DNA of 64,000 nucleotides from a bacterium (GTDB lineage Bacteria > UBP15 > UBA6099 > JAJRTR01). The stretch is from the NCBI GenBank assembly GCA_024278215.1, contig JAJRTR010000135.1:11651-75650 (forward strand), written 5' to 3'. A model generated the notes under the pieces. The model ran no database searches. It had not been told where the DNA came from and saw only the letters and a program-made list of their open reading frames with translations. This document shows positions 106 through 59,415 of the stretch, one piece after another. Within the stretch, counting starts at the first letter, position 1. Each line of letters starts with the position of its first letter. The translations under genes and the position numbers were made by a program.

Positions 106-284
106 GAGCCAATTGCAAAATTCTGATTCTGCTACGGTCGGCTGCTATTGACCATAGCTGCGTTGTCGGCACAAAATCGTCCTCGACGTACTCTACAAGT
201 ACACCTGCGAGGATTTTACACCTCCGCCTTGCTCTGAACAATTTCGCTCGACCTCGCTACGAACATAATTTTGCAATTGGCTCA
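106..284 (-). mobile_element. MITE-like element, family 1, copy A (reverse orientation relative to copies B and C)
   Basis: A 179 bp element bounded by 16 bp terminal inverted repeats GAGCCAATTGCAAAAT ... ATTTTGCAATTGGCTC. It is flanked by the direct repeat ACTC, a target-site duplication. It is about 88% identical to copies at 1123-1301 and 14335-14513. Confidence 0.7.
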
Positions 285-1061
285 CTCTTTTTCAAGGCTT
301 ACGAGGTAGTTGGCGCCGGTGGTGTCGCCATCTTTTTTCGGAGGCAGTGCGACGTTAAGCGAAATCAGTGTTTCGGGACCTACCTGCTTGCCGGCCCGTT
401 TTGGAATCGGTCCCTTGAGATATATACAGGAGCCGTCGAGGTCTTTCATGATCCATCTTGTTTTTTTGATCTCGTCCGGCACGTCGGCTTCGCATTTGAA
501 ATGGGGCGAGTAGATGCCCCTGATACGAAATTCACGGCCCTCGAACATATCCCAGGCCTTCAATACTTCTGATACCGCATAAGGTTTTTTGTTCATTGCA
601 GCCTGTCGTTTATGTTCTTCCAGCACTTTTTTCATCTTTTCGGCATATTCTTTTTTGATTCTTTCATACATAAGAGATTGCAGGTAATAGCCCTGCGGAT
701 ATTTCCTTAGGATACCTTCCACAGCGACGTCTTTGCCGACCCCCATGCGTGTTCTCCACGTACAGCCAGGCGGCATCGTGCCGCGTGCGTAAAGACACGC
801 GCCGCTGTCTTGCAGCATCCAGTTTAAGCCGCGTGCCGCGGGTGGGTTTTTACATGCCCCGTCCACACCCATGAACATGCCGACGACGACTATTCTTTTA
901 TTCAAGTAGGTAGCCGGGTTTTCATACACGTCCGACACGGTAACAATTATCCGCTTGCTCTCTTTCACATTATCCCGCGCCGCTTTCGTATCGGCGGCTG
1001 TCGCAACACATGCGCATATAAATATAAATACCAGAAGGAAGATAGAAGTTCGTTGTTTCAT
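282..1061 (-). CDS. secreted or membrane-anchored hypothetical protein (N-terminal signal peptide, 259 aa)
   Basis: The N-terminus MKQRTSIFLLVFIFICACVATAAD is a typical signal peptide, possibly a lipoprotein. No recognisable catalytic motif. The stop codon abuts MITE copy A and the promoter side abuts MITE copy B. Confidence 0.55.
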   Translation of the reverse strand: MKQRTSIFLLVFIFICACVATAADTKAARDNVKESKRIIVTVSDVYENPATYLNKRIVVVGMFMGVDGACKNPPAARGLNWMLQDSGACLYARGTMPPGCTWRTRMGVGKDVAVEGILRKYPQGYYLQSLMYERIKKEYAEKMKKVLEEHKRQAAMNKKPYAVSEVLKAWDMFEGREFRIRGIYSPHFKCEADVPDEIKKTRWIMKDLDGSCIYLKGPIPKRAGKQVGPETLISLNVALPPKKDGDTTGANYLVSLEKE

Positions 1062-2798: not shown

Positions 2799-4535
2799 AT
2801 GCTCATGCCTGACGTAATTATAAAAAACGGAACAGTGATCGACGGAACGGGCGCACCGCGCGTGAAGGCGGATGTGGGAATCAAGGGCGACCGCATCGAG
2901 TTTGTTGGCCGGGTGCCGGCGGGCGCCGATGGATGCAAGGTGATCGACGCGACAGGCAAGTATGTGTGTCCCGGCATAATCGACCCACACTCGCACGCCG
3001 ACCTGACGATCTTCCGCGAGGAGCATCCGCGGTTGCTCGAACCGCTGGTGAGGCAGGGTATCACGACTTTCGTAGGCGGCAACTGCGGCATGTCTATGGC
3101 GCCCATCGGAGACAAATATAAAAAGCCGACCAGCGACTACCTTGAAATTTTCACCGCTATGGATGTCGAGAAGGAGATCGACTGGCGCACGACTTCCGGA
3201 TTTTTCGATGTCATCGAGAAAAACGGGCTCATCATGAACGCCGCCATGCTTGCTCCCCACGGTCTTATCCGTATCCACGAGATGGGGCTCGAACAGAGAT
3301 ACGCGACAGACGGCGAGATCGATTCGATGAAGAATGTGCTCGACGAGTGTATGGAGGCCGGCTGCATCGGCATGTCCACGGGGCTCCAGTATTTTCCGGG
3401 CTCGCAGAGCGACACGCGCGAGCTGATCGAGCTGGGAAAGATCATAAAAAAACATGATGGAATATACACGAGTCACCTGCGCAGCTACTCGAACACGCTC
3501 GGACTCGCTATCGACGAGATAATAGATATTTGCAGAACCAACGAGATAAACGGGCAGGTGTCGCATATATTTTCCATACCCGATTTCGGCAGGTTCGGGC
3601 GTCCGGTCAGGGCGGTTATCAGGGCGATGGCGAAGCTCGCGGATTACTGGGTGCCGTCGCTGCCGCTGGATATCGACACCAGAAAGCAACTCGACAAACT
3701 CGACGCGCTCCGCGAAAACGGCACAAATGTCGGCATGGACATAATGCCCACGACAACGGGTTTCACACACTTGCTCGCGTTCTTCCCGCCCTGGGTACTC
3801 ACCGGAGACAAGAAGGCAATACTCAAGCGGATCGCCGACCCGGAAATGCGCAAGAAGATATATCACGATATTGTAAACGGACACTTGATATGGCCGCATG
3901 TCGAGGGCAACACATGGTCGCTGAACCTCTTTAAACTCATGGGCTGGGAGTGTGTGCGAATAATGTCAGTAGTCTCCGAAAAAAATAAAAAATACGAGGG
4001 TGCCCACCTGCCTGCGATAGCAAAAGAGCGAGGCCGCCACCCGTTCGATGCCGCCTGTGACCTGCTGGTAGAAGAGGATGGAAAGGTGCTCATCTTCGAG
4101 TCCATCGCGAGGCCTGAAGACAACTTCACCGAGACTTCGACTTTCGCGGGCATCAAGCACCCGGAAGTTTCCATCAGCACAGACACGATTCTCATGGGGT
4201 TCGGCAAGCCGTCATATCTCTTCTACGGCACATATCCGAAATTTATCAGGCGCTATGTGCTGGACAAGAAGCTTCTGACGCTGGAAACTGCTATCAGGAA
4301 ATTATCGGGGTTGCAGGCGGAGTTGTTCAGGATCAGGGACAGGGGCAATATCAAAAAAGGCTGGTTCGCCGATGTGCTTGTGTTCGATCCGGAGACTATC
4401 GCGCCCAACTGCACATTCACGGAACCTGTCGGCACGCCGTCGGGGATCGACCACGTATTTATAAACGGCCGGCATATATTGGACGAGGGAAAGCTTAATG
4501 CAGATCCGCTCCCGGGGCGGCTGCTGAGAGCGTAG
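2799..4535 (+). CDS. D-aminoacylase (N-acyl-D-amino-acid deacylase) family amidohydrolase
   Basis: The N-terminus M(LMPDV)IIKNGTVIDGTGAPRVKADVGIKGDRIEFVG...CPGIIDPHSHAD is the hallmark start of the D-aminoacylase / amidohydrolase superfamily. 578 aa. The true start may be the ATG at 2806. Confidence 0.7.
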   Translation: MLMPDVIIKNGTVIDGTGAPRVKADVGIKGDRIEFVGRVPAGADGCKVIDATGKYVCPGIIDPHSHADLTIFREEHPRLLEPLVRQGITTFVGGNCGMSMAPIGDKYKKPTSDYLEIFTAMDVEKEIDWRTTSGFFDVIEKNGLIMNAAMLAPHGLIRIHEMGLEQRYATDGEIDSMKNVLDECMEAGCIGMSTGLQYFPGSQSDTRELIELGKIIKKHDGIYTSHLRSYSNTLGLAIDEIIDICRTNEINGQVSHIFSIPDFGRFGRPVRAVIRAMAKLADYWVPSLPLDIDTRKQLDKLDALRENGTNVGMDIMPTTTGFTHLLAFFPPWVLTGDKKAILKRIADPEMRKKIYHDIVNGHLIWPHVEGNTWSLNLFKLMGWECVRIMSVVSEKNKKYEGAHLPAIAKERGRHPFDAACDLLVEEDGKVLIFESIARPEDNFTETSTFAGIKHPEVSISTDTILMGFGKPSYLFYGTYPKFIRRYVLDKKLLTLETAIRKLSGLQAELFRIRDRGNIKKGWFADVLVFDPETIAPNCTFTEPVGTPSGIDHVFINGRHILDEGKLNADPLPGRLLRA

Positions 4536-6426: not shown

Positions 6427-6558
6427 GTACTAATCCCAATACCGTTTACTTTAGCAACAATGATGCGCAAAAAAGCCTGTATTTTCGCGAATATTGATAC
6501 CCATACCCTCTTAAGTAAACGGTATTGGTACTAATCCGCATATTTCACAAATGCGGGT
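6427..6558 (+). promoter_or_regulatory. large imperfect inverted repeat followed by a family-2 hairpin, upstream of the ABC operon
   Basis: AGTACTAATCCCAATACCGTTTACTTT (6427-6453) pairs with AAGTAAACGGTATTGGTACTAATCC (6508-6534), about 25 bp arms with a ~55 nt loop. This is followed directly by CCGCATATTTCACAAATGCGGG, the first hairpin of repeat family 2. Confidence 0.4.
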
Positions 6559-6787: not shown

Positions 6788-7738
6788 ATGATCGAAGTTC
6801 ATTCAGTGAAAAAGTATTACGGCTCATTCCTTGCTGTGGATGATGTGAGCTTCGATGTGCGGCCCGGCGAGATCGTGGCGTTTGTCGGCCCGAACGGGGC
6901 GGGGAAAAGTACGGTGTTGAAAATGATCGCCACTTACCTTATGCCGGATGCGGGCAGTATAACGGTAAATGGTCGCGATGTGGTGAAGAACTCGCTCGAT
7001 GTGCGCGGCTCGATAGGATATATGCCGGAGAAAAGTATCAGCTACGAAGGGATGCGCGTCGACAGGTTCCTGAAGTTTGTCGGGGAGGCGCGCGGACTGG
7101 CCGGCTCAACTTTGAAAAAGAATTTCGACTGGGTGGTGAACAGTTGCGGGATAGAGGAGGTACTGCACAAGCGGGTGGGCCAGTGTTCCAAGGGATACCA
7201 GAGGCGCGTGTCGCTTGCTATGTCGCTGATACATGATCCGGGTGTGATCCTTATGGACGAACCGACGCATGGGCTGGACCCGCTCCAGGTTCTCGCTCTG
7301 AGGGACTTCCTTAAGAGTCTCAAACGGGACAGGGCGATTCTCTTCAGCAGCCATATCTTCCAGGAGGTGGTGGCGATATGCGACCGGGTGCTGATAATAA
7401 ATAATGCGCGGCTGCTGGCGGACGGCACAGTCGTCGAGATTGCGGGCAAGGCCGGGATACCGCAGGTGGTGAACTGCGTGATCGAGGCGCCGCCCGACGA
7501 ATTGCGCGGTGCGCTCGATAGGCTGACGTCGGGCTGTGTCGGGAACTTCGTCGAGGCCGGCGCGGGGGTCGCACATGTCGAAATTGAAAAAAAGAACGGC
7601 GGACTGCGGGGCGATGTCGAGAAGATGTGTTCGGTTGCCGGCTGGTCGATAAGGTCTTTTATCGAGCAGCCGCTCGATCTTGAAATAGTGTTTGCCGAGA
7701 TTGTCAGGAAATCAAATGAGGAAGCTACTGTGCAATGA
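6788..7738 (+). CDS. ABC transporter ATP-binding protein (ABC-2 / GldA-like)
   Basis: Walker A GPNGAGKST, ABC signature CSKGYQRRVSLA, Walker B ILMDEP. The stop overlaps the next gene's start (ATGA). Confidence 0.85.
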   Translation: MIEVHSVKKYYGSFLAVDDVSFDVRPGEIVAFVGPNGAGKSTVLKMIATYLMPDAGSITVNGRDVVKNSLDVRGSIGYMPEKSISYEGMRVDRFLKFVGEARGLAGSTLKKNFDWVVNSCGIEEVLHKRVGQCSKGYQRRVSLAMSLIHDPGVILMDEPTHGLDPLQVLALRDFLKSLKRDRAILFSSHIFQEVVAICDRVLIINNARLLADGTVVEIAGKAGIPQVVNCVIEAPPDELRGALDRLTSGCVGNFVEAGAGVAHVEIEKKNGGLRGDVEKMCSVAGWSIRSFIEQPLDLEIVFAEIVRKSNEEATVQ

Positions 7739-8523
7739 ATATCGAAGCTAAAGCGGCGGTCGGTGCGTGCGTCGGTGGCGCGCCGGGCACGATAAGGGCG
7801 ATAAAGATTATTTTCTCACGTGAACTCGGGGCCATTTTCGACTCTTCTGTCGCGTATATTTATTTTATCGCTTTCACCCTTCTGACCGTCGGTATTTTCA
7901 TGAACGAATTCTTTGTCGTTTCCGTAATCGACATGACGCCATATTTCAAACTCCTGCCGATGCTCCTTATCGTTTTCATGCCCGCCCTCACTATGCGGAT
8001 ATGGGCCGAGGAAAAACGTGTCGAGACTTTCGAACTTCTCATGACTATGCCGCTGACACCGGCGCAGATTGTTATCGGAAAGTTCAAAGCGGTTTTTGTT
8101 TTCTATCTTCTGACCCTGTGCGGTTCGCTGCCCATCGTGATCATGCTGAAATCGCTCGGCTCGCCCGATCTCGGGCTGATCCTTTCGGGATATATCGGCG
8201 CGGCGCTGCTGGGCGCGCTCTTTATTTCTTTCGGGCTTTTCACATCCGGCGTCACGGCGAACCAGATAGTAGCGTTCGTGCTCGCTGTTTTTATCGGTTT
8301 CCTTTTCGTCTTCAGCGGCGACGACAGGGTGGTGTCCATTCTCGACGGCCTGACGCCACATCTTCAGGCAGGCACTTTTCTCTATGAATCCTTCTCCGCT
8401 ATCCCGCACTACCAGGCCATGACCGGCGGCCTGTTATGCGCGTCGGACGTATTCTTTTTCGTTTCCATGACTGCCGTGTTCCTGTGGTTGAACGCTATCT
8501 CGGTGAACAGGAGCCGCATTTGA
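7735..8523 (+). CDS. ABC-2 family transporter permease (GldF-like)
   Basis: 262 aa with six predicted transmembrane segments. Translationally coupled to the upstream ATPase. Confidence 0.7.
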   Translation: MNIEAKAAVGACVGGAPGTIRAIKIIFSRELGAIFDSSVAYIYFIAFTLLTVGIFMNEFFVVSVIDMTPYFKLLPMLLIVFMPALTMRIWAEEKRVETFELLMTMPLTPAQIVIGKFKAVFVFYLLTLCGSLPIVIMLKSLGSPDLGLILSGYIGAALLGALFISFGLFTSGVTANQIVAFVLAVFIGFLFVFSGDDRVVSILDGLTPHLQAGTFLYESFSAIPHYQAMTGGLLCASDVFFFVSMTAVFLWLNAISVNRSRI

Positions 8524-8524
8524 A

Positions 8525-11500
8525 TTGAGACGCCCGGCACCTGTCCAACTCGCAATAATCTTTCTGCTTATGCTGTGCATCGCAGTTGTCGGCGCGCGTT
8601 GCGTAAGTTTATTGTGGCCGGGCGCATACGACATTAGCCGCAGCCGGTCGCACATGGTCGATCCGGGCACTATAGAATATTTGAAGTCACTCGATGAGCC
8701 CGTTTTTGTCACTTATGCTGTTTCCGCGCGTTGCGAGATGCCTTCACAGCTCAAGCGTGTCGAAAGAGGTGTCGTCGCAATATTGAAATCACTGCGGGAC
8801 GCCGCGCCCGACAAATTCGACTATATCGTTGTCGATCCTTCCGGCAATAAAAACATGGTCGGTATCGTGGCGTCGAAAAAAATATCTCCTTTCCATTCCG
8901 AGAGCATTCTGGACGACAAGAAAACAGAAAAAGTTGTCTGGTCCTCGATAGTCGTTTCGATGGGAGCCCGTCGCGACGTCGTTCTGCATCGCATAACGGA
9001 AGCATACCTGCCGCATCTCGAGTCGCTGATTGTCGGGCATCTCAAAAACATGAAAACGCCGATAAAGCCCGTGATAGGTGTGGTCACGCCCGAGTCGGGT
9101 TTTGCCTCGCTGCGCGCTGTTCTGGAAAACTCGGGCCGTGTCGAAAACATATCAATCAACAGTGAATCCGGTATACCGGCGGACATCGACATGCTCTACT
9201 GGATGGACCCCGCCGATGTGCGCGACAGGACGATTATGGAACTGAGGCGTTTCGTCGAATCGGGCCGGAATGTCGTTCTCGCGGGTTCCCTCTATAAAAT
9301 CTCCATGATGCGCGGCAGGGACGGCGGCCTGCTGTACAATGTTTCTCTCGAAGACCCTTCAATAAATAAGATTATCAAAAAGTTCGGTCTGGAAATGAAA
9401 AAGAGTATCGTGCTGGACGAAAGAAGTGAAACGATAAATGTTCCCGGTGAAAAAGGCGGTTCGAGGCAGGTGAGCATTCCGTTTGCCATCCGCACGACGC
9501 CTGTCACACACAACCTGAAAAGTTTTGCGGGACCTAACACCGGTGCTCTCGGATTCTATGCTTCGGTTCCGATAAATATGAACGAGAGCAGGCTTCGCGC
9601 ATTCGGATATGAAGCGCAGACAGTCGTGACATCCTCGGAAAACGTATGGACCGTGCCGCTCGACGAAGCGCGTTTTTCGGAGGAACAGTTCGCGCCCACC
9701 ATTATGAAAACCAAGCAGCCGCTCGCCGTCATGCTGAGCAAGCCCGGAGACCCGTTCCACGGCAAACTGCTGGTTCTTTCGTCGTCGTCGATGTTCACGG
9801 ATCAGGGACTTGCCAAACAGGGGTTCGGCCACAGGGCGTTTCTGAGGCTGCTGGGCAGGACATTCCTGTCGGCGCAGGAACTTGTGAAGATGAGAGTCGA
9901 GCGGCGGCTGCCCGATCTGCTGCCCGATATGACGCCTGCCGGAATTATATACTGGCGTGTTTTCGCAATGGTGTTTATCCCGGCGTTTGTGCTGTTGGTC
10001 ATGCTGATAAGGACCGGTCTGCCGCGTGTAAGTTTCGGGCCGTGGCTGAGGATCGCGACCGAAGCGGGCGCTGTCGCGATAATCGCGCTCGTCGTTGCCC
10101 GGCTCATTTCGGGAGCGCTCGGCGCGGCGCGTGTGGATATGACTGCGAACAGGGTCAACAGCATGGCGGAATTCACACGCGAAACGGTCGGGGACCTTGC
10201 CGTGGAAACTACTGCCACGCTCTACACAACACGGCGCGCACTCATGCCGGTCGGGTTGAAAAAGGCGCAGGAGGAGACGATAGTCCTCGCACGCACGCTG
10301 TGCCGGATGAGCGGCGGCAAACTTAAATTCACAATCGTCTATCCCGACGATCTGGAGAAACTCGACCGGGATATCCTTATCAAAAAAGGCATCAAGCCGA
10401 CCGGCATGGAAGTGACGGAATATGACCGCGCCGTAACAAGGAATATATGGAACGATCTCGTGTTCGAAAGCGGCGGGCGCATGTACAGGTTGCCGTTTAT
10501 AAGGGAAAACAGCGCGTCGCAGATCGAATTTATGATCGACACAACTTTAAAAGCCATCGAGCGCGGGAAAGAATTTCACGTGGCCGTGGCGTCGGATCTT
10601 CCGCGCCTGTCGCCCGCCGAGGCGTTCGAGGATTATTATAAAAAACAGCTCACCGCGCCTGTCGGCTCGGACGTTTACAGTGAAGCAAAAGATATGTTGC
10701 GCGCGAACAATTACAGGGTGACGGACGTGAATCCGCGCAAACCGGAAGTACCGCCGGATACGGATGTGCTGATATGGTTGCAACCGCGCCGGCCGGTCGA
10801 GAAGATGGCCGTCGAACTGCTGAACTATCTCGACGGCGGCGGCATGGCGATGATCGCCGCGCAGCATTATAACATCCAGCAGCGACAGTACCGCGGGCGC
10901 GGGTTCCGGACTGTTTACTGGCCGCAGCCGCAGTACATCGACATGAACGACTGGCTCGACCTGATCGGAATAACGATTGAAAAAGAAGTGTTTATGGACG
11001 AAGTGCAGACGCAACTCGAACTCGAGATGCAGATAAACAGGCTCGCTGTGCGCGAATACGAAGACCAGGCTGTCGCGAAACCGTTTCTGATCCGCGCGAT
11101 CAATCCCAACTTCTCGCACGAGTCGCCCATTACCGCGAATCTCGGCGACCTGCTTTTTATCTGGGGCAACAGGTTTACTGTCGACAGGCAGAAACTCGAG
11201 GCGGCGGGGCTTCGCTACAACCCGCTGGTTTCCTCCAGTCCGCATTCGTGGAAATATGACTGGAAAGGTGGTTTTCTCGGCGAAGATGTGTTTAATAAGC
11301 GCGACTACCTCGAGGGCGGGCAATTGCTGAGCCTGCTCGTGAGCGGCGACTTCCCGCATGTGCGTCTCTACAAACCTGAACCGATAACAAACGAAGACGG
11401 CGAGCAGGTAATGCCCTATGCAGGCGCATCGGGCGCGGGGCTGATACAGGTCGACAAAAGAGGTGGCGGCAGCACTTCGCGCGGCGAACTGATTCTCACG

Positions 11501-11779
11501 GGCAGTTCCCAGATGTTCACAAACGCGCACCTGCGCCAGGAGGGGTTCGACCACGCGCAGTTCCTCCTCAACTCCATCGCATACCTCGCGCTCGGCCCCG
11601 GCGCGGCCCGGTTGCAGGCGAAGAACCTCACCCCCGAAGGATTCGAACAGCCGGACGAACGCATTATGCTTCTCATGAGAATCCTGACAATGGGATTTCT
11701 CCCGTTTGTGTTTTTGATTTACGGCGCGGCGCGCTTTACGCTGGAAAGGCGGAAGAAAAACCTGGCTTTCAGGGATTAG
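8525..11779 (+). CDS. GldG-like ABC-transporter accessory protein, apparently tandem-duplicated (1084 aa)
   Basis: An N-terminal transmembrane anchor, an internal transmembrane segment near aa 480 (IIYWRVFAMVFIPAFVLLVML) and a C-terminal transmembrane segment. This matches two GldG-type modules in series (GldG is about 550 aa). It sits directly after the ABC-2 ATPase and permease, as in gldAFG loci. Confidence 0.55.
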   Translation: MRRPAPVQLAIIFLLMLCIAVVGARCVSLLWPGAYDISRSRSHMVDPGTIEYLKSLDEPVFVTYAVSARCEMPSQLKRVERGVVAILKSLRDAAPDKFDYIVVDPSGNKNMVGIVASKKISPFHSESILDDKKTEKVVWSSIVVSMGARRDVVLHRITEAYLPHLESLIVGHLKNMKTPIKPVIGVVTPESGFASLRAVLENSGRVENISINSESGIPADIDMLYWMDPADVRDRTIMELRRFVESGRNVVLAGSLYKISMMRGRDGGLLYNVSLEDPSINKIIKKFGLEMKKSIVLDERSETINVPGEKGGSRQVSIPFAIRTTPVTHNLKSFAGPNTGALGFYASVPINMNESRLRAFGYEAQTVVTSSENVWTVPLDEARFSEEQFAPTIMKTKQPLAVMLSKPGDPFHGKLLVLSSSSMFTDQGLAKQGFGHRAFLRLLGRTFLSAQELVKMRVERRLPDLLPDMTPAGIIYWRVFAMVFIPAFVLLVMLIRTGLPRVSFGPWLRIATEAGAVAIIALVVARLISGALGAARVDMTANRVNSMAEFTRETVGDLAVETTATLYTTRRALMPVGLKKAQEETIVLARTLCRMSGGKLKFTIVYPDDLEKLDRDILIKKGIKPTGMEVTEYDRAVTRNIWNDLVFESGGRMYRLPFIRENSASQIEFMIDTTLKAIERGKEFHVAVASDLPRLSPAEAFEDYYKKQLTAPVGSDVYSEAKDMLRANNYRVTDVNPRKPEVPPDTDVLIWLQPRRPVEKMAVELLNYLDGGGMAMIAAQHYNIQQRQYRGRGFRTVYWPQPQYIDMNDWLDLIGITIEKEVFMDEVQTQLELEMQINRLAVREYEDQAVAKPFLIRAINPNFSHESPITANLGDLLFIWGNRFTVDRQKLEAAGLRYNPLVSSSPHSWKYDWKGGFLGEDVFNKRDYLEGGQLLSLLVSGDFPHVRLYKPEPITNEDGEQVMPYAGASGAGLIQVDKRGGGSTSRGELILTGSSQMFTNAHLRQEGFDHAQFLLNSIAYLALGPGAARLQAKNLTPEGFEQPDERIMLLMRILTMGFLPFVFLIYGAARFTLERRKKNLAFRD

Positions 11780-11783
11780 ACGA

Positions 11784-12974
11784 ATGACAAGGTCAATCGT
11801 AATATTCGCGCTGATACTCGCGCTGCTGCTGGCGGCGAATAATCTGCTTGTGAAAAAAGACGCCGAAATCAACAGGCGCTACACGAACCTCTACTCACTT
11901 GTGGACAGGGATAAAGTGTCGAAGGATGAAGTGAGGGCGTTGGGTATCGTATTTCCGGGCAGTAAGCTGGAACTACGCTACATGAAAGTGGACGACGCAT
12001 GGCGGATGCCGCAGTACAGGGGGGCTTACGCGCGCGGCGACCTCGTGGATTCCATTGTCAGGGACATCACCGATACCTGGGGCATAAAGATAGACACGCG
12101 AGACAGACCGGCTTCCGACTTCGGTTTTTCATCGGAAAGCATAATGATAAAAATATATGCCACCGCCACAGAGCCGATAGGCGGTATTGTGTGCGGCAGA
12201 GTGGTGCCGGGCTTCCAGAGCACGGACTCCTATGTGAAGATTATCGGCGAGAACGCCATATACCAGATAAACGGCAATCCGCTGGGCAAGCTTGGTTCTC
12301 CGGGCGGGCTACCCCCGCTTGTGGACTCGCAGATCATCCCCGATTCCCTGGGTGCGAAAGGTGAACTGGGAAAAATATTTTTCGAGCCGCACTCTGATAG
12401 TAGTGAAATGCTGTGGATCGAACGGCGCGAAAAACCCGAGTCCGAGATGAAAGAAAGCCCCATGCGCCGCATGATGCCCGATTACAAGGAATACGATTGG
12501 TTCGCGATTCTACCGGACGGCACGGATGTGAAGCTGAACGAACGCAGTGCCGTCGAATATACCGGTTTTGTCAGGCGGCTGTCGTTCGACAGGCTGCCGC
12601 GGATCAGCGAACTCGACGAACACGCCCTGCGGCCTTCGGAAAAAAAGCTTGTCCTGGAATTCGAGCCGCGCGAAAAACCCAAACCCCCACCCGTGAAAGG
12701 TGTGGACCCGACCGGCACCGCCTCACAGGTTGAAAAAGACGTGTCCTCGATGCCGTTTAAGGAATCCATTGAAATAAGAGAATCCGACAGGAACGCGAAC
12801 AGTTATATCTATTACACGGGTACAAACCTTATAGCATCAGTCGATCAGAAAAAGATCAAATTGTTTTTTCCATCTCTGCATACGCTCGAGAGCGCACCGA
12901 AGAAACCTTCGATATACAGTAGTGTGCCGCCCGCGCCGCCCGGCGGCGCACCCGCGCTTTTCTCGCCCCGGTGA
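11784..12974 (+). CDS. hypothetical membrane-anchored protein (DUF4340-like, GldG-associated)
   Basis: N-terminal transmembrane segment (IVIFALILALLLAA). It occupies the position after GldG that a DUF4340 protein usually fills. The call is from context and composition. Confidence 0.4.
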   Translation: MTRSIVIFALILALLLAANNLLVKKDAEINRRYTNLYSLVDRDKVSKDEVRALGIVFPGSKLELRYMKVDDAWRMPQYRGAYARGDLVDSIVRDITDTWGIKIDTRDRPASDFGFSSESIMIKIYATATEPIGGIVCGRVVPGFQSTDSYVKIIGENAIYQINGNPLGKLGSPGGLPPLVDSQIIPDSLGAKGELGKIFFEPHSDSSEMLWIERREKPESEMKESPMRRMMPDYKEYDWFAILPDGTDVKLNERSAVEYTGFVRRLSFDRLPRISELDEHALRPSEKKLVLEFEPREKPKPPPVKGVDPTGTASQVEKDVSSMPFKESIEIRESDRNANSYIYYTGTNLIASVDQKKIKLFFPSLHTLESAPKKPSIYSSVPPAPPGGAPALFSPR

Positions 12975-13096
12975 TGTTTCCATCGCCTGCGGCGACACAG
13001 CGTTTTATTCAGAACCCGTTTCCATGTTGCACATATACGAAAGCATCCCGAATTGCACCGATATGTAACTTCACATAGAATATCAAAAACATATTA

Positions 13097-13290
13097 TCCC
13101 GCATATTTCACAAATGCGGGTGAAAAACCGGAAGAATGCCCATAATACAAGGCGCGGCAAGTGAGGGTGAGGAAGCATCCTGCAGGTATGTGACCGATCC
13201 CGAATCGCCGCCGCAACGTAGTAGAATGGGGGGTCTCACGGTTTTCCGGATCTCTTTGTGAGAAATCCGGGTTATCCTGGTTGAAGGAGA
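13097..13290 (+). repeat. family-2 repeat / candidate structured-RNA element, copy 1 (~190 bp, hairpin-bounded)
   Basis: Starts with the palindrome CCCGCATATTTCACAAATGCGGG and ends with the palindrome CCGGATCTCTTTGTGAGAAATCCGGG. Its core is shared with the copies at 28211-28400 and 59221-59415. It ends 8 bp before the hydrolase gene ATG. Confidence 0.6.
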
Positions 13291-13297
13291 AACCCGC

Positions 13298-14230
13298 ATG
13301 TTGAGCGCAATAAAAAAGGCTGTCCTCTTTTTCTTTATTGTCGTCGTTTCCTTAATCCTGTTTATTTTAATCTTTCCCCTGGTATACAAACCCGACATGA
13401 TTGATCCCGCCCAACTGGATATCACGGGGAAATTCCTGCAACTGGACGACGGGATAAAAGTTCACTATATGGAACAGGGCAAGGGCGATGTGCTGCTGCT
13501 GATTCACGGCTATACGTCCAATCTCTATTCGTGGAACGAGGTGATGCCGGAGCTTTCGAAAAAATATCGCGTAATAGCGGTCGACCTGCTGGGATACGGT
13601 TTCACGGACAAGCCGAAGGATGCGACATACAACTACCGTTCTTTTTCGGATGTCATCAAGAAATTTCTCGACAAAAAAGGGATAAGAAAACTTTCGATTG
13701 CCGGCAATTCGATGGGTGGCGGCACGGCCATACGTTTCGCGCTCGATCACCCGGCGATGGTGAATAAACTAATACTTGTGGACAGCTCGGGAGTGAAGTT
13801 CGCGCATGACCCGATGCTGCTCATCATGTTCGGAACCCCCGGACTGAACAATTTTATTTTCAGTATCATCAACAAGAGCATCATGAAAAAATCACTGGAG
13901 TTCTGCTGCTACTACAACAACGATGCCGTGACCGACGAACGGGCATACCTGTATACATTTTCTTTCCGAACGAAGGGGTCGTTCAATTCCGTGACAAAAA
14001 CCGTGATGCAGAACGACTTCGACGGGCTGGAGGATAAACTGGGAACCCTGAAAGCGCCGACGCTTATAATATGGGGCGAAAAAGATATGCTGATACCCGC
14101 CACGACAGCGGGCAAGTTCCATCGGCTGATACCGAATTCGAAGCTTACGATTATCGAAAAATGCGGACACATGCCCCAGGAGGAAAAACCGGCGGTGACG
14201 ATAGCGGCGATTGAAGGTTTTCTTAAATAA
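13298..14230 (+). CDS. alpha/beta-fold hydrolase
   Basis: HGYTS...GNSMGG nucleophile elbow (GxSxG), plus N-terminal transmembrane or signal segment. 310 aa. A possible terminator hairpin CGGAGCG...CGCTCCG lies at 14240-14262. Confidence 0.75.
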   Translation: MLSAIKKAVLFFFIVVVSLILFILIFPLVYKPDMIDPAQLDITGKFLQLDDGIKVHYMEQGKGDVLLLIHGYTSNLYSWNEVMPELSKKYRVIAVDLLGYGFTDKPKDATYNYRSFSDVIKKFLDKKGIRKLSIAGNSMGGGTAIRFALDHPAMVNKLILVDSSGVKFAHDPMLLIMFGTPGLNNFIFSIINKSIMKKSLEFCCYYNNDAVTDERAYLYTFSFRTKGSFNSVTKTVMQNDFDGLEDKLGTLKAPTLIIWGEKDMLIPATTAGKFHRLIPNSKLTIIEKCGHMPQEEKPAVTIAAIEGFLK

Positions 14231-14334: not shown

Positions 14335-14513
14335 GAGTCGATTGAAAAATTATGTTCGAAAGCGAGGTCGAACGAAATTGGTCAGAAGCAAGGCGGAGGT
14401 GCAAAATCCCCGCAGGCGTACTTGTAGAGTACGTCGAGGACGATTTCGCGCCGACAACGCAGCTGTTGACAATTGCAGCTGACCGTAGCCGAATCAGAAT
14501 TTTGCAATTGGCT
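14335..14513 (+). mobile_element. MITE-like element, family 1, copy C
   Basis: Same terminal inverted repeats, with a slightly diverged left end (GAGTCGATTGAAAAAT). Flanked by the direct repeat AACAT. Confidence 0.65.
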
Positions 14514-14553
14514 CAACATGTATATCCATTTTGTTCGGAGCGAAAAAACGGGA

Positions 14554-16273: not shown

Positions 16274-16420
16274 ATCTCCGACTTTATAGTGTCGTGTCAT
16301 GCTTGTAACTGCGCAAGAGGTGTAGGGCGGGATCACCGTACCCAGCCTGACCATATTTCTCGCGATTTTACGGCTTTCTTTGTAAGAAAAACGGGCTAAT
16401 ATCAATTTCGGAGCGGATCA

Positions 16421-18582: not shown

Positions 18583-20067
18583 ATGGCGGGAATACTGATA
18601 AAAAACGGAACGGTGATAGACGGCACGGGCAGTCCCGGCAGGCAGGCCGACGTACTCGTTGAAGGTGAAAGAATAAAAGAGATCGGCGAAATATCCGAAG
18701 AAAATGATAAAAAAGCCGACCCGGAAATCCGTGTCGTCGACGCCGCCGGCAAAGTCGTCTGCCCCGGTTTCATCGACATACACGGCCACAGCGACTTCTC
18801 CGCGCCGGTGCGCGGAGAGATGGAAGAGAAGATCAGACAGGGCGTAACGACCGTCGTCACAGGCAGTTGCGGCTTCTCGGGCGCGCCCTCCAACCCGCGC
18901 TTCGTCAACTATTTCAATCGCTACACCGGCGGCATGTTCGGCAGGGAATGTCCGTTCGAGTGGCAGAGTATGCGCGAGTATCTCGAATATCTTGTGGACA
19001 AAGGCATCGCCGCCAACATCGTGCCGCAAGTGGGGTTCGGCAACCTGAGGGTGATGGCCAGGGGGCTCGCGCCCGGCGCGGCCAACAAATCGCAGATAGA
19101 CGAAATGAAAAATATGCTCGCGCAGGCGCTCGACGAAGGCGCGCGCGGGTTCACTACAGGTCTGGTGTACCCGCCGCAGAGCATGGCCGGCGCGGACGAA
19201 ATAATGGAATTGGTCAAAGTGCTGTCGGGGCGCGACGCGGTCTACGCCACGCACGTTCGCAACGAGATGGACGAACTGGAAAATGCCGTGCGGGAAGCCG
19301 TCGACACTGCCCGCGCGGCGGATGTTTCACTCCAGATATCGCACCATAAGGCGATCCTCCAGCGCAACTGGGGCAAAGTCCGCAACACAATCGCCATGAT
19401 CGAAAAGGCACGCGCGGAAGGGCTCGATGTCGAAACAGACGTCTATCCCTACACTGCTTTCTCGAACGTCATCATGCCGTTCTTCTTCAAATACGAACCC
19501 GGCATGGAAGACAACATCCTTTTTCTTCACATGAAGCACTACAAGGAATGCGAGGGCAAAACACTCGCCGAAGTCATGCGCATGAAACACATGGGCATCA
19601 AGCGCCTGATACTTACGATGGCGCTCAAAGAAGGCCTTACCGGGATGCCCATCGCAGGCTTCATGATCGGCGAAGAAGACCTGAATTTCCTGCTCGCGCA
19701 CCCCATCGTATCCATCGGCTCCGACGGCGTCGAATCATTCGGTGAAAAGGCTCATCCCCGGCTCTGGGGCACTTTCCCTCGAATGCTCGAAAAATATTGC
19801 CGACAGGACAAACTTGTCTCCATCGAGGAAGCAATCCGGAAAATGACGACTATGGCCGCACGGAAATATCACCTGAAAATGCGCGGCGAACTTAAAGAAC
19901 AATACTTCGCGGACATCGCAGTGTTCGACCCGGCGAATATAGCAGAAAACACCACATATCGCGACCCCCTGCAACTGCCCACAGGCTTCGAGGCGGTAAT
20001 TGTCAATGGAAAAATCGCAGTCTACAAAGACGTCCGCACCGGCGAGCGCGCGGGCCTCCCGCTCTGA
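18583..20067 (+). CDS. D-aminoacylase family amidohydrolase (second paralog)
   Basis: MAGILIKNGTVIDGTGSPGRQADVLVEGERIKEIG...CPGFIDIHGHSD. Same family as the 2799-4535 gene. Confidence 0.7.
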   Translation: MAGILIKNGTVIDGTGSPGRQADVLVEGERIKEIGEISEENDKKADPEIRVVDAAGKVVCPGFIDIHGHSDFSAPVRGEMEEKIRQGVTTVVTGSCGFSGAPSNPRFVNYFNRYTGGMFGRECPFEWQSMREYLEYLVDKGIAANIVPQVGFGNLRVMARGLAPGAANKSQIDEMKNMLAQALDEGARGFTTGLVYPPQSMAGADEIMELVKVLSGRDAVYATHVRNEMDELENAVREAVDTARAADVSLQISHHKAILQRNWGKVRNTIAMIEKARAEGLDVETDVYPYTAFSNVIMPFFFKYEPGMEDNILFLHMKHYKECEGKTLAEVMRMKHMGIKRLILTMALKEGLTGMPIAGFMIGEEDLNFLLAHPIVSIGSDGVESFGEKAHPRLWGTFPRMLEKYCRQDKLVSIEEAIRKMTTMAARKYHLKMRGELKEQYFADIAVFDPANIAENTTYRDPLQLPTGFEAVIVNGKIAVYKDVRTGERAGLPL

Positions 20068-21407: not shown

Positions 21408-21881
21408 ATAATGCCTCTCATCTTTTTATGAGAACAGATTCGCAATATTTAAGCAAATTATTCAATTTCACTCTGCCGGAGCATCATTTAGAAACAGGCA
21501 TAAATTATAATACAGCAAGAGCTAATTGCAAAATATTGTTTGTAAGGAGGCCCAATCTGATGTAGCAGCCCCAATTCTGCTCATGACCTTCAAGTGAAAG
21601 GTATTGGGGCAACCGTATTGGTGAAATATGTGGGATAAGCGTAAACCGTACGGCACAATGATATCACTTAGTGGTTGAACGAAAACCTGCACCTGCCGGA
21701 GCAGTTTTTCGCTCGACCACTTTTCAACATTTTATCACGAAGATCACGGTCTTTTTATTGCCATAGTTATTATTCATGCGATTTATTACAGCTTTCTTTG
21801 CATTTGAATTGCCGATCTTCGTTTGCGCTTTTCGTGAATTTTTCCTTTAATACAGGCCTTTTCAGGGTTTTTGTTCAGCCC

Positions 21882-28210: not shown

Positions 28211-28400
28211 CACTGCTAACCCGCATATTTCACCAATGCGGGCCAAAAATCGGGAGAATGCCTGTAATACAAGGCGCGGCAAGTGAGTGGTGCGGGAGCA
28301 TACTGCAGGTATGTGACCAATCCCGAATCGCCGCCGCAACGCAGTAGAACAGGCGTTATAGCGATTTTCCGGATTTCTTTGCGAGAAATCCGGGCCAATA
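28211..28400 (+). repeat. family-2 repeat / candidate structured-RNA element, copy 2
   Basis: CCCGCATATTTCACCAATGCGGG ... CCGGATTTCTTTGCGAGAAATCCGGG. Near-identical to the copy at 59221-59415 apart from one internal hairpin swap. Confidence 0.6.
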
Positions 28401-28572
28401 ATTAAGTGAAGTATATTATATATACTACTATACAGCAAGACAAAAAAATTTTTCCTGATTCTGAATAATCTGAATTTTCTCGGGGTTAAAATATCGGCAA
28501 CGCCGGCATATAAGCCGAATAATGTCGAGATTTACTCGGTCTCCGTATCGACCGAATATTGAATATCGCCGC

Positions 28573-28602
28573 CGAAAACCCGTTCGGCTTCTTTTCTTCT
28601 GT
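28573..28602 (+). terminator. orphan plus-strand intrinsic terminator-like hairpin
   Basis: GCCGAAaacccgTTCGGC is followed by TTCTTTTCTTCT. No plus-strand CDS precedes it. It lies about 170 bp downstream of family-2 copy 2. Confidence 0.35.
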
Positions 28603-28650
28603 CGAGCCGATTGCTAAACTCTGATTCTGCTGCGGTCGGCTCTATTATTC
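28603..28650 (+). mobile_element. family-1 MITE fragment (left terminal inverted repeat plus ~30 bp)
   Basis: GAGCCGATTGCTAAACTCTGATTCTGCTGCGGTCGGCT matches the left end of the 179 bp element and then stops. Confidence 0.5.
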
Positions 28651-32759: not shown

Positions 32760-32975
32760 ATGAAATTCAATATAATCCTGCAACAGTCGGAAGAGTGTGG
32801 CTTCGATGTAATTGTTCCGGCCCTGGACGGCTGTTATACGCAGGGAGAAACAGAGCAGGAAGCGATCATCAATGCGAGGGAAGCGATTATCTGCTATCTT
32901 GAGGGCCTTCAAAAATTGAATCAGATAAAATCAACACCAAAAGTTATTTTAAAGGAAATTGAGGTTGCTCTTTGA
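32760..32975 (+). CDS. hicB: type II antitoxin HicB (UPF0150 family)
   Basis: [43 protein letters not shown] is a canonical HicB/UPF0150 sequence. 71 aa. A 4 bp overlap with the next gene. The region has lower GC than its flanks. Confidence 0.8.
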
Positions 32976-33187
32976 GCAGAACATTTTCTGGCGAGGAACT
33001 CGTGAAAGCACTCCGAAGATCAGGATTTGTTGTCGATCATCAGAGAGGCAGCCATATTTTCATGCATAATCTGGAGAAAAATATATCCGTTATTATCCCA
33101 TTGCATAAAGAGGTTAAAAAAGGCACCTTGAATAACATCATCAAGAAAGCAGGCTTAACATTGAACGAGTTGCAGGAGCTTGTTTAA
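32972..33187 (+). CDS. hicA: type II toxin HicA (YcfA-like mRNA interferase)
   Basis: ...[24 protein letters not shown]...[21 protein letters not shown] is a canonical HicA sequence. 71 aa. Confidence 0.8.
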
Positions 33188-33252
33188 CCCGGATTTCTCA
33201 CAAAGAAATCCGGGTTAAACAGGAAATTTGTGGGATATGATGTGGCAGATAA

Positions 33253-41755: not shown

Positions 41756-42106
41756 AATTCAAACCAGACATGTTATGAGTTCAAAACCTGAATATTTCAT
41801 TGATGCGTGCTATGTGCGGCTAAAGTGCAGTTCCCGCAACGCGTTGCAGCCGATCCGGGCAAAAACGCTACAGATCGGATTGTATTACCCGCATTGGTGA
41901 AATATGCGGGTTAATATTTCGCGCAGGCACGCCTCCTCACCGCCCTGTTTCAAACTCTGTAAATACTCTCCTGAAATAATACCACAACATGAACATGATG
42001 ACAAAAACTTCGGCATATCCCCATATCTGTATTCGAGACCTGCGCAAAAACAAGTTGGCACGACGATAGCCTGATATTTTGGCCCTCGGTGGTGAAATAT
42101 GCGATG

Positions 42107-46951: not shown

Positions 46952-47469
46952 TTTACTTATCCTGAATCGAAGTTGATTGTTAAGTATTGGTCAAGACCTT
47001 ATCACGCTGTAAGCGTCGACATGTTGGCACCGAAAATATCATTCAACAGAAGGGTGTCTCCGGCATTCTCTTCTAAATTCCCAGTATGGAAAACAACTTC
47101 ATTGCTGCAAAAAAACTTGTGAACTCATTGATCGTAATACCACAACTTTGAATTTCATATCAACATCCCTGACGCATATTTCACCATTGCGTGTGAGAAA
47201 CCAATCCTGTATAAATTATAACTTAACTTGTGCGTTTTTGAATTTTCAATCAGATTTTCCGGTGCATTACCGGAATTTTCCATTGAATTCCGAATCGTGT
47301 TTTTACGGTAAGAAAACCGGTCGGACGTGTTGCACATCCCCTATACATATATAACGGCAAATATCGAAGGATACTTAATTTAAATGGAATAAAGGCCCCG
47401 GGGGGGTGTGGCAGGGTCTCTATAGTGTGACCCTGCATGTGAATTGTCCGGGTGTTGCTGGAGGCGTCA

Positions 47470-58957: not shown

Positions 58958-59194
58958 ATTCCCATCTGTGGTCTGTTTTACACAGCTATCGTTATTATTA
59001 TAGTATAGTATACTCCAGTAGTGTCCAAAATATTACCTGATTACCCCTGAAACTCAGGTAGTGGTGATTTTAAAAAACAACCATCCGGTTTTGTGTAGTG
59101 CGGGGTCACCGCCCTTGTCTACATCTTCCACCGAATTTATTGCGTATGCGTCCCTCTTCTCGCTTTTGAACCAAATGCAGCCGGACGCAGCCGG

Positions 59195-59218
59195 ATCAGA
59201 ATATTGCAATCGGCTCTT
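59195..59218 (+). mobile_element. family-1 MITE fragment (right terminal inverted repeat end only)
   Basis: CAGAATATTGCAATCGGCTC matches the right terminus of the 179 bp element and directly abuts family-2 copy 3. Confidence 0.45.
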
Positions 59219-59220
59219 AC

Positions 59221-59415
59221 CCCGCATATTTCACCAATGCGGGCCGAAAATCGGGAGAATGCCTGTAATACAAGGCGCGGCAAGTGAGTGGTGAGGGAGC
59301 AGCCGGCCTCTTGCGCAAAATGCTGGTATGTGACCGATCCCGAATCGCCGCCGCAACGCAGTAGAACAGGCGTTATAGCGATTTTCCGGATTTCTTTGTG
59401 AGAAATCCGGGTTAC
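59221..59415 (+). repeat. family-2 repeat / candidate structured-RNA element, copy 3
   Basis: CCCGCATATTTCACCAATGCGGG ... CCGGATTTCTTTGTGAGAAATCCGGG. Its core is near-identical to copy 2. Confidence 0.6.

Follow-up and report, generated by a model that had tools for sequence, protein, structure and literature searches.

The window, by which we mean the whole 64,000-nucleotide stretch of DNA analyzed here, contains three full copies of a non-coding element of approximately 180 bp (174-191 bp), all on the plus strand, located by pattern searches of the window at positions 13098-13271, 28220-28394 and 59221-59411. Each copy opens with a short hairpin (H1), continues with a rod-like core and closes with a second hairpin (H2). 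In copy 1 (174 bp) these parts span 13098-13120, 13121-13245 and 13246-13271, respectively; the H2 hairpins of copy 2 (175 bp) and copy 3 (191 bp) lie at 28369-28394 and 59386-59411. The H1 motif, CCCGCATATTTCACNAATGCGGG, starts at 13098, 28220 and 59221, and two conserved core blocks are found at these three places only in the window. When the H1, H2 and core-block patterns were sought in 100 shuffles of the window, the number of chance matches per motif was 0.00. Three plus-strand copies had indeed been predicted originally, and their multi-copy motifs recur far above chance. The predicted boundaries are sound overall, except that the end given for copy 1 (13290) overshoots by 19 nt and the start given for copy 2 (28211) is 9 nt early.

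Copy 1 is followed, 27 nt downstream, by the ATG (13298) of an alpha/beta-hydrolase gene. Copy 2 lies in the pilM leader, antisense to pilM, about 15 nt downstream of a conserved -10 box (TATATAATATACTTCAC) and ahead of the pilM start codon; a minus-strand promoter-like site runs from 28443 to 28415 near this copy. Copy 3 is flanked by a PAP2 gene and by pmbA, both on the minus strand, and is antisense to both. Copies 2 and 3 had been described as upstream of pilM and pmbA, which is true of their position, but since both genes are on the minus strand these copies are antisense to them. The variable internal hairpin of the original prediction is real: the apical hairpin differs between copies and is longer in copy 3 by an insertion of 16 nt. 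Since the copies are separated by 1-nt and 16-nt indels, no reading frame is conserved among them.

The hairpins also occur alone. An isolated H1 (TCCGCATATTTCACAAATGCGGG) is present at 6535-6557 (+), and the next 10 nt or so are similar to the beginning of the core. An exact match is found at 41888-41910 (-), with TAA on each side. Degenerate forms occur at 47171-47193 (+) and, as an H1 half, at 42083-42105 (-), which is 195 nt upstream of the 41888 solo H1 and on the same strand. These sites had been foreseen; another degenerate H1, at 21612-21634 (-) with 3 mismatches, is an addition to the earlier list. A lone H2, likewise predicted, is found at 33188-33214, in inverted orientation (-) and directly after the hicA stop codon, as a perfect 27-bp palindrome with TTAA on both flanks. 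The hicB/hicA toxin-antitoxin pair occupies 32760-33187, and the TAA stop codon of hicA forms part of the TTAA that flanks this solo H2. Finally, a decayed 3' remnant at 16362-16395 (+) combines one half of the closing stem, CGCGATTTT, with an H2-like segment, ACGGCTTTCTTTGTAAGAAAAACGGG, and is followed by CTAA. A covariance model, built from six copies of the family, scores copies 1, 2 and 3 at 193.7, 212.6 and 196.5 bits, respectively, and the remnant is covered by a weak match (14.2 bits) at 16284-16399.

Another family of repeats, approximately 190 bp in length and bearing the ends GAGCCAATTGCAAAAT..., is represented by copies at 101-287, 1119-1306 and 14335-14514 and by fragments at 21519-21550, 28602-28641 and 59174-59216. 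The last of these fragments directly abuts the target-site duplication of copy 3 (see below), and a second one is found some 200 nt away from copy 2. An inverted pair of copies of this first family (133-nt arms, 88% complementary) flanks an ORF at 282-1061 (-), which codes for a protein of 259 aa whose N-terminus resembles a signal peptide and which matches no Pfam family. This protein was considered as a candidate transposase and rejected, as it looks like a secreted protein. A similarity between positions 2815-2875 and 18593-18653 (61 nt, 75% identity) was also rejected as a mobile repeat; the two segments are the 5' ends of the Amidohydro_3 genes at 2799-4535 and 18583-20067, which are paralogues.

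Relatives of the element were found in two uncultured bacteria, namely L004/L007 (MAG DAOSYA01, the same organism as JGI Ga0116162) and L008 (ERZ795048). Exact-pattern scans returned one true locus and five chance matches, inside Ser/Thr-kinase coding sequence, from the genome collection, and two true loci and two chance matches from the metagenome collection; the chance matches are all in sequence unrelated to the element, and the coding sequence of Ser/Thr kinases accounts for six of them. The element was not found in exact-pattern scans of viral contigs, and a blastn search of annotated plasmids and phages with the element gave no match. The covariance model recovers two full copies, a 237-bp variant and a truncated copy in L007, so that the 10.6 kb of this locus contain four copies derived from the element; in L008 it recovers a single copy. 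A search with the same model of approximately 290 kb from other relatives, retrieved through their PmbA, hydrolase and PilM homologues, yielded no further copies.

A third hairpin module (TTCATGCACAGAGCAAAGCTTGTGCATGTCACCCGG) is located inside or beside element copies around positions 1985, 4475 (-) and 4745 of L007, such that copies are interrupted or partly replaced by it and the intergenic regions there are mosaic. One of the copies (L007c) has kept the ends of the family, and its interior is largely different. Together with the decayed remnant at 16362-16395 of the window, these mosaic copies indicate that individual insertions decay after fixation.

The two ends of the element are 14-bp terminal inverted repeats (TIRs). 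When CCCGCATATTTCAC is compared with the reverse complement of the other end, CCCGGATTTCTCAC, 11 of the 14 positions match in the window and 12 of 14 match in L007 and L008; the probability of such a match by chance is about 4e-5. The element thus has the layout 5'-CCCGCATATTTCAC...GTGAGAAATCCGGG-3', where each TIR is contained within its own short terminal hairpin, H1 or H2. The termini have the general form CC(C/T)G...CGGG.

Immediately outside these ends, short direct repeats flank the element. Copy 1 lies between TTAT (13094-13097) and TTAT (13272-13275), and copy 3 between TTAC (59217-59220) and TTAC (59412-59415); copy 2 is bordered by CTAA (28216-28219) and CCAA (28395-28398), which match in 3 of 4 positions, all as read on the plus strand. 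The corresponding pairs are TTAG/TTAG for the mosaic copy L007c, TTAA/TTAA for the solo H2, GTAG/ATAG for the L008 copy, TTAG/GTAG for a composite L007 copy and TTAA/CAAA for L007a. Over these 8 insertions, 27 of 32 positions match between the left and right flanks, and the variable fourth base is the same on both sides in every case (8/8). In a control in which flanks of different copies were paired at random, the mean was 19.9 matches (P=0.00045). The flanking tetranucleotide is a 4-bp target-site duplication (TSD) at NTAN, mostly TTAN; a strict TTAA duplication is seen in only 2 of the 8 cases.

Comparison of filled and empty sites leads in the same direction. In L026, from the closest available relative (PilM 89% identical), the same tRNA-Met, intergenic region, -10 box and pilM start are present, and the element is missing. 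If positions 28220-28394 and one 4-nt repeat are removed from the window, the alignment to L026 spans the junction without a gap, and the empty site in L026 holds a single tetranucleotide, CAAA (plus strand), where the window reads CTAA-element-CCAA. The pilM site of L027 (PilM 71%) is likewise empty. Copy 2 is accordingly a lineage-specific insertion of 175 + 4 bp in the pilM leader. An orphan terminator had been predicted to follow copy 2, and a plus-strand terminator-like hairpin with a T-tail does exist at 28571-28598, between tRNA-Met (-) and pilM (-), with no plus-strand gene upstream of it. It lies outside the element, however, since the flanking DNA in which it is found is shared, in a more degenerate form, by the empty site of L026.

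The element is therefore small (below about 500 bp) and non-coding, carries TIRs, is flanked by a TSD of fixed length (4 bp) and shows presence and absence at orthologous sites, all of which are expected of a MITE, and we consider that the family probably consists of non-autonomous transposable elements of this type, presumably moved in trans by a DDE transposase. Several observations count against this reading. Some of the target duplications are imperfect at a single position. The flanks of the solo H1 copies are poorly duplicated, such that independent mobility of H1 is unproven. Many MITEs are AT-rich, and the GC content of the element is 52-54%. Finally, a Pfam search of 44 ORFs in the window and 10 ORFs in L007 and L008 gave no match to a transposase or RAYT family, and no autonomous element with these ends was found in the 64-kb window, L007 or L008.

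The flanks and the empty site also bear on whether the family could instead be REP/BIME-like, or derived from an IS200/IS605 element (PATE), and moved as single-stranded DNA by an HUH tyrosine transposase (RAYT/TnpA) by means of its terminal hairpins. To our knowledge, insertion of REP and IS200/IS605 elements creates no target duplication; in this family, the tetranucleotide next to the element differs from copy to copy yet repeats on both sides (8/8 at the variable base), and the empty site contains exactly one copy of it. Both ends are short palindromes that are also found alone, mosaics with other hairpin modules occur in L007, the first repeat family adjoins the element in the window, and the L008 copy is preceded by GTAG, the REP tetranucleotide motif, as would suit such an element. 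Yet the 5' tetranucleotide is not of a conserved GTAG type, being TTAT, CTAA, TTAC, TTAA, GTAG or TTAG and mirrored on the other side, and, as opposed to a PATE, which inserts 3' of a fixed tetra- or pentanucleotide without duplicating it and has a fixed cleavage motif at its right end, the element has a right flank that co-varies with the left in 8 of 8 insertions. The strand-asymmetric structure and compensatory changes described below would fit recognition of hairpins in single-stranded DNA, but each end is an inverted repeat of the other, an arrangement known from DDE elements, and no RAYT/TnpA family was matched by any ORF scanned in the window or at related loci. We regard this explanation as quite improbable. 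Because REPs make no target duplication, the element is assigned to the TIR/TSD type, i.e., a MITE, rather than to the REP/RAYT type. The original prediction had left the choice between a transcribed structured RNA and a mobile REP-type repeat; the mobility is borne out by the filled and empty sites, the TSDs, the TIRs and the decayed and mosaic copies, but the type of mobile element is another one.

The surroundings of copy 1 differ in organization between the window (6788-14230) and the closest relative (L016, 1-7620). In L016, which is from the same relative as L026 and codes for the hydrolase orthologue (71% identical), there is no element in the 209 nt upstream of the start codon. In the window, an ABC-transporter operon precedes the hydrolase gene and shares its direction; in L016, the operon is found downstream of the gene and is convergent with it. 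Copy 1 is situated at the rearrangement junction in the window, and an H1 half-site (CCTGCATTTCTCACC) is situated at the junction in L016, near position 1161, which suggests a repeat-associated inversion.

The extent to which the copies resemble each other is similar within and between genomes: identity is 77-96% within a genome and 79-90% between genomes, and the two ranges overlap. The proteins encoded nearby are more variable. In the closest relative, SRR28370467, PmbA, PilM and the hydrolase are 81%, 89% and 71% identical to the window proteins, respectively, and the other retrieved homologues are at most 63% (PmbA), 72% (PilM) and 50% (hydrolase) identical to them; proteins encoded in L008 share 44-58% identity with their counterparts in the relative represented by L012. 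Even in L026, at 89% PilM identity, the intergenic DNA that flanks copy 2 is poorly alignable outside the promoter. The conservation of the copies, while the proteins and intergenic DNA have diverged, points to either horizontal spread or purifying selection in lineages where the element is active. In the relative with 63% PmbA identity, a 185-aa protein with HTH_23/28/29/32 domains is encoded just upstream of pmbA (L012, 9078-9635; L013, 737-1294). Such a set of domains is typically seen at the N-terminus of transposases; the locus itself (L012/L013) contains no copies of the element.

The consensus fold of the family comprises H1, an irregular rod of approximately 140 nt closed by AAAAUCG/CGAUUUU, and H2, with 58 pairs in all, and 95.4% of the alignment cells form standard pairs. 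The covariation that had been proposed as a check on the stems is present: compensatory changes occur in 8 of the 58 pairs, compared to 3.1±1.3 when columns are shuffled (none of 500 shuffles gives as many as 8), and sliding the partners by 1-3 columns leaves 1-2 compensated pairs. Drawn from six related sequences, this result is supportive and not proof. Much of the compensatory pattern stems from the divergent L007b copy. Copy 1 folds at -76.8 kcal/mol (z = -3.9). The consensus energy is -68.2 kcal/mol on the plus strand versus -55.2 kcal/mol on the minus strand, a difference of 13 kcal/mol, and the plus-strand fold includes four invariant or near-invariant G.U pairs. The assignment to the plus strand is only moderately supported, as the two strands have similar single-sequence z-scores and two near-invariant G.U pairs are also present in the minus-strand fold. 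Within the core, 24 of 80 paired columns (30%) and 21 of 46 unpaired columns (46%) vary. The covariation implies that the fold matters, and, as far as the alignment can tell, the internal rod fold appears to be under selection across distant genomes.

Such a fold raises the question of whether the repeats are paralogous genes rather than transposon copies, i.e., structured small-RNA genes or cis-regulatory, riboswitch-like leaders. The stability of copy 1, the paired and compensated columns and the preference of the consensus for one strand, with its near-invariant G.U pairs, are what a functional RNA would display, and an ORF on the same strand follows shortly downstream in 4 of 7 copies. The genes in question are functionally unrelated (hydrolase, GHMP kinase, FGE-sulfatase-like protein), there is sometimes no such gene, and copies 2 and 3 are antisense to the genes that they precede; because the copies face either way relative to their neighbors, a riboswitch or a dedicated sRNA gene is unlikely. 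Several copies are found just downstream of -10-like boxes, but this association does not exceed the background: such boxes lie near 5 of 7 insertions, versus about 52% expected from intergenic TTAN sites, which is not significant, and association with promoters was rejected. A role for H2 as an intrinsic terminator was also ruled out, as no U-tract follows it on either strand. A scan of the whole window against Rfam 15 at the gathering threshold detected only tRNA, with no family match to the element, and permissive scans (E<=10) of copies 1 and 3, L007 and L008 gave only noise; the suggested Rfam search thus names no family. Moreover, truncated and mosaic copies exist, and the insertion of copy 2 into the pilM leader, with its target duplication, is specific to one lineage. 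For these reasons we find it very unlikely that the family represents RNA genes or leaders in their own right, and a dedicated sRNA or riboswitch gene is unsupported.

The rod nevertheless calls for comment within the MITE interpretation. A DDE transposase normally needs only the ends of its element, so the compensatory changes in the rod and its identity across genomes are unexplained by a simple MITE model. There is some chance, albeit a small one, that the core of approximately 140 nt is a functional structured RNA or a single-stranded DNA structure which the element needs or delivers; it could be, for example, a mobile RNA module between palindromic transposon ends, or a structure used in an unusual mechanism of transposition. 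A functional core would explain the compensatory changes, the near-invariant G.U pairs on one strand and the cross-genome identity of 79-86%.

Another explanation considered is that the element is a composite, in which a once-independent structured RNA gene of about 140 nt was captured between palindromic mini-elements of the H1 and H2 types and has since spread as their cargo. H1 and H2 each occur alone, the solo H2 being a perfect palindrome with TTAA/TTAA flanks of its own, and L007c combines the same ends with a largely different interior. The core is strongly conserved between genomes, in both its paired (24/80 vary) and its unpaired columns (21/46 vary), yet it matches no known RNA family, and no copy of the core without its ends was detected by the covariance model in approximately 420 kb of window and related loci. 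Since no end-less core was found, the capture scenario is without direct support; the solo H1 copies, with their poorly duplicated flanks, also speak against it, and we judge it very improbable.

The MITE interpretation is strengthened by comparison with known systems. Bacterial MITEs are described as elements of less than 200 bp with TIRs and TA-containing target duplications, the transcripts of which form long stem-loops (PMC2229807, PMC10969869), and the agreement of the present element with these descriptions supports its assignment to this class. A close parallel is provided by the Correia/NEMIS elements, MITEs of Neisseria, which are also non-coding and multi-copy, 100-200 bp in length, bounded by TIRs and flanked by a TA-containing target duplication; they too exhibit size variants caused by internal insertion or deletion, and insert beside or inside transcription units. 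Their transcripts fold into long stem-loops (PMC2229807, PMC2649163), and they are known for an IHF site, the creation of promoters and processing by RNase III. There is no sequence similarity between the two, and the Correia elements have TIRs of 24-26 bp and a 2-bp TA duplication, as opposed to the 14-bp TIRs, which fold into their own terminal hairpins, and the 4-bp NTAN duplication of the element in the window. The ERIC/IRU elements of enterobacteria are likewise imperfect palindromes of approximately 130-190 bp, intergenic, co-transcribed and unusually conserved between species, and ERIC sequences are reported to have orientation-dependent effects on mRNA stability (PMC2229807). They differ in sequence and host lineage, and ERIC TIRs measure 7 bp; the element described here has, in addition, terminal hairpins and solo-hairpin derivatives. 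The REP/BIME repeats of E. coli and the NIME/dRS3 repeats of Neisseria similarly consist of short palindromic units that stand alone or are combined in intergenic mosaics, as do H1, H2 and the third hairpin module (H3) in L007. Their units are not bounded by inverted repeats with a TSD, whereas the present element is a discrete unit with both.

With respect to the ends themselves, two families of DDE elements are relevant. The IS1380-family entries of ISfinder have 4-5-bp duplications and ends that start with CC. IS1380 is the prokaryotic counterpart of piggyBac (PMC5718144), a superfamily with CCC...GGG ends and TTAA duplication (PMC10813416, PMC7351741). Members of the superfamily also have asymmetric ends with palindrome-like subterminal repeats. 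The element resembles this group in its CC(C/T)G...CGGG termini, its 4-bp TTAN duplication and its asymmetric ends; it departs from it in that its target is TTAN/NTAN instead of a strict TTAA, no transposase of this superfamily was seen among the ORFs scanned, and no known element is matched by sequence. The relationship to piggyBac/IS1380 is therefore offered as a lead. The ends of IS5-family elements usually start with GG or GA, and not with CCCG. This family and its MITEs generate a 4-bp duplication of the form YTAR (PMC5009759), with which CTAA, TTAG and TTAA of the present set agree, and TTAT and TTAC do not.

Taken together, the following mode of propagation may be envisaged. (i) A DDE-type transposase, presumably encoded elsewhere in the genome, would recognize both ends and move the element in trans. 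(ii) The enzyme would cut its target with a 4-nt stagger at NTAN, thereby producing the 4-bp duplication. Judging from the CC(C/T)G...CGGG ends and the 4-bp TTAN duplication, it may be piggyBac/IS1380-like, with an IS5-like enzyme as the alternative. (iii) The solo hairpins may either be minimal end-to-end derivatives or have arisen by deletion between two nearly identical direct repeats of 7 nt (ATGCGGG and ATCCGGG) at the feet of the hairpins. The solo H2 starts with CCCG, as does H1, and not with TCCG, which fits both of these possibilities. (iv) Given their location in leaders and intercistronic spacers, the copies are, by analogy with Correia and ERIC elements (PMC2229807, PMC10969869), probably co-transcribed with their neighbors in either orientation, and would fold as a rod with two hairpins. 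The folded transcript could then alter the processing or stability of the mRNA, as in the case of Correia and ERIC elements, and the rod might be selected for propagation of the element or for its tolerance by the host.

The element is a well-delimited bacterial MITE, mildly unusual in its hairpin-embedded ends with a 4-bp TTAN duplication and in its internal fold, which is apparently under selection. In its ordinary capacity as a MITE, it records recent transposon activity in a poorly known lineage of uncultured bacteria, and accounts for the intergenic repeats as well as, probably, for some of the local rearrangements. One of its copies has added 179 nt of structured sequence to the pilMNOPQ leader, with a possible effect on the expression of pilus genes. 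If a piggyBac/IS1380-like transposase is confirmed, the CCC...GGG ends and the 4-bp TTAN duplication would define an unusual type of bacterial MITE.
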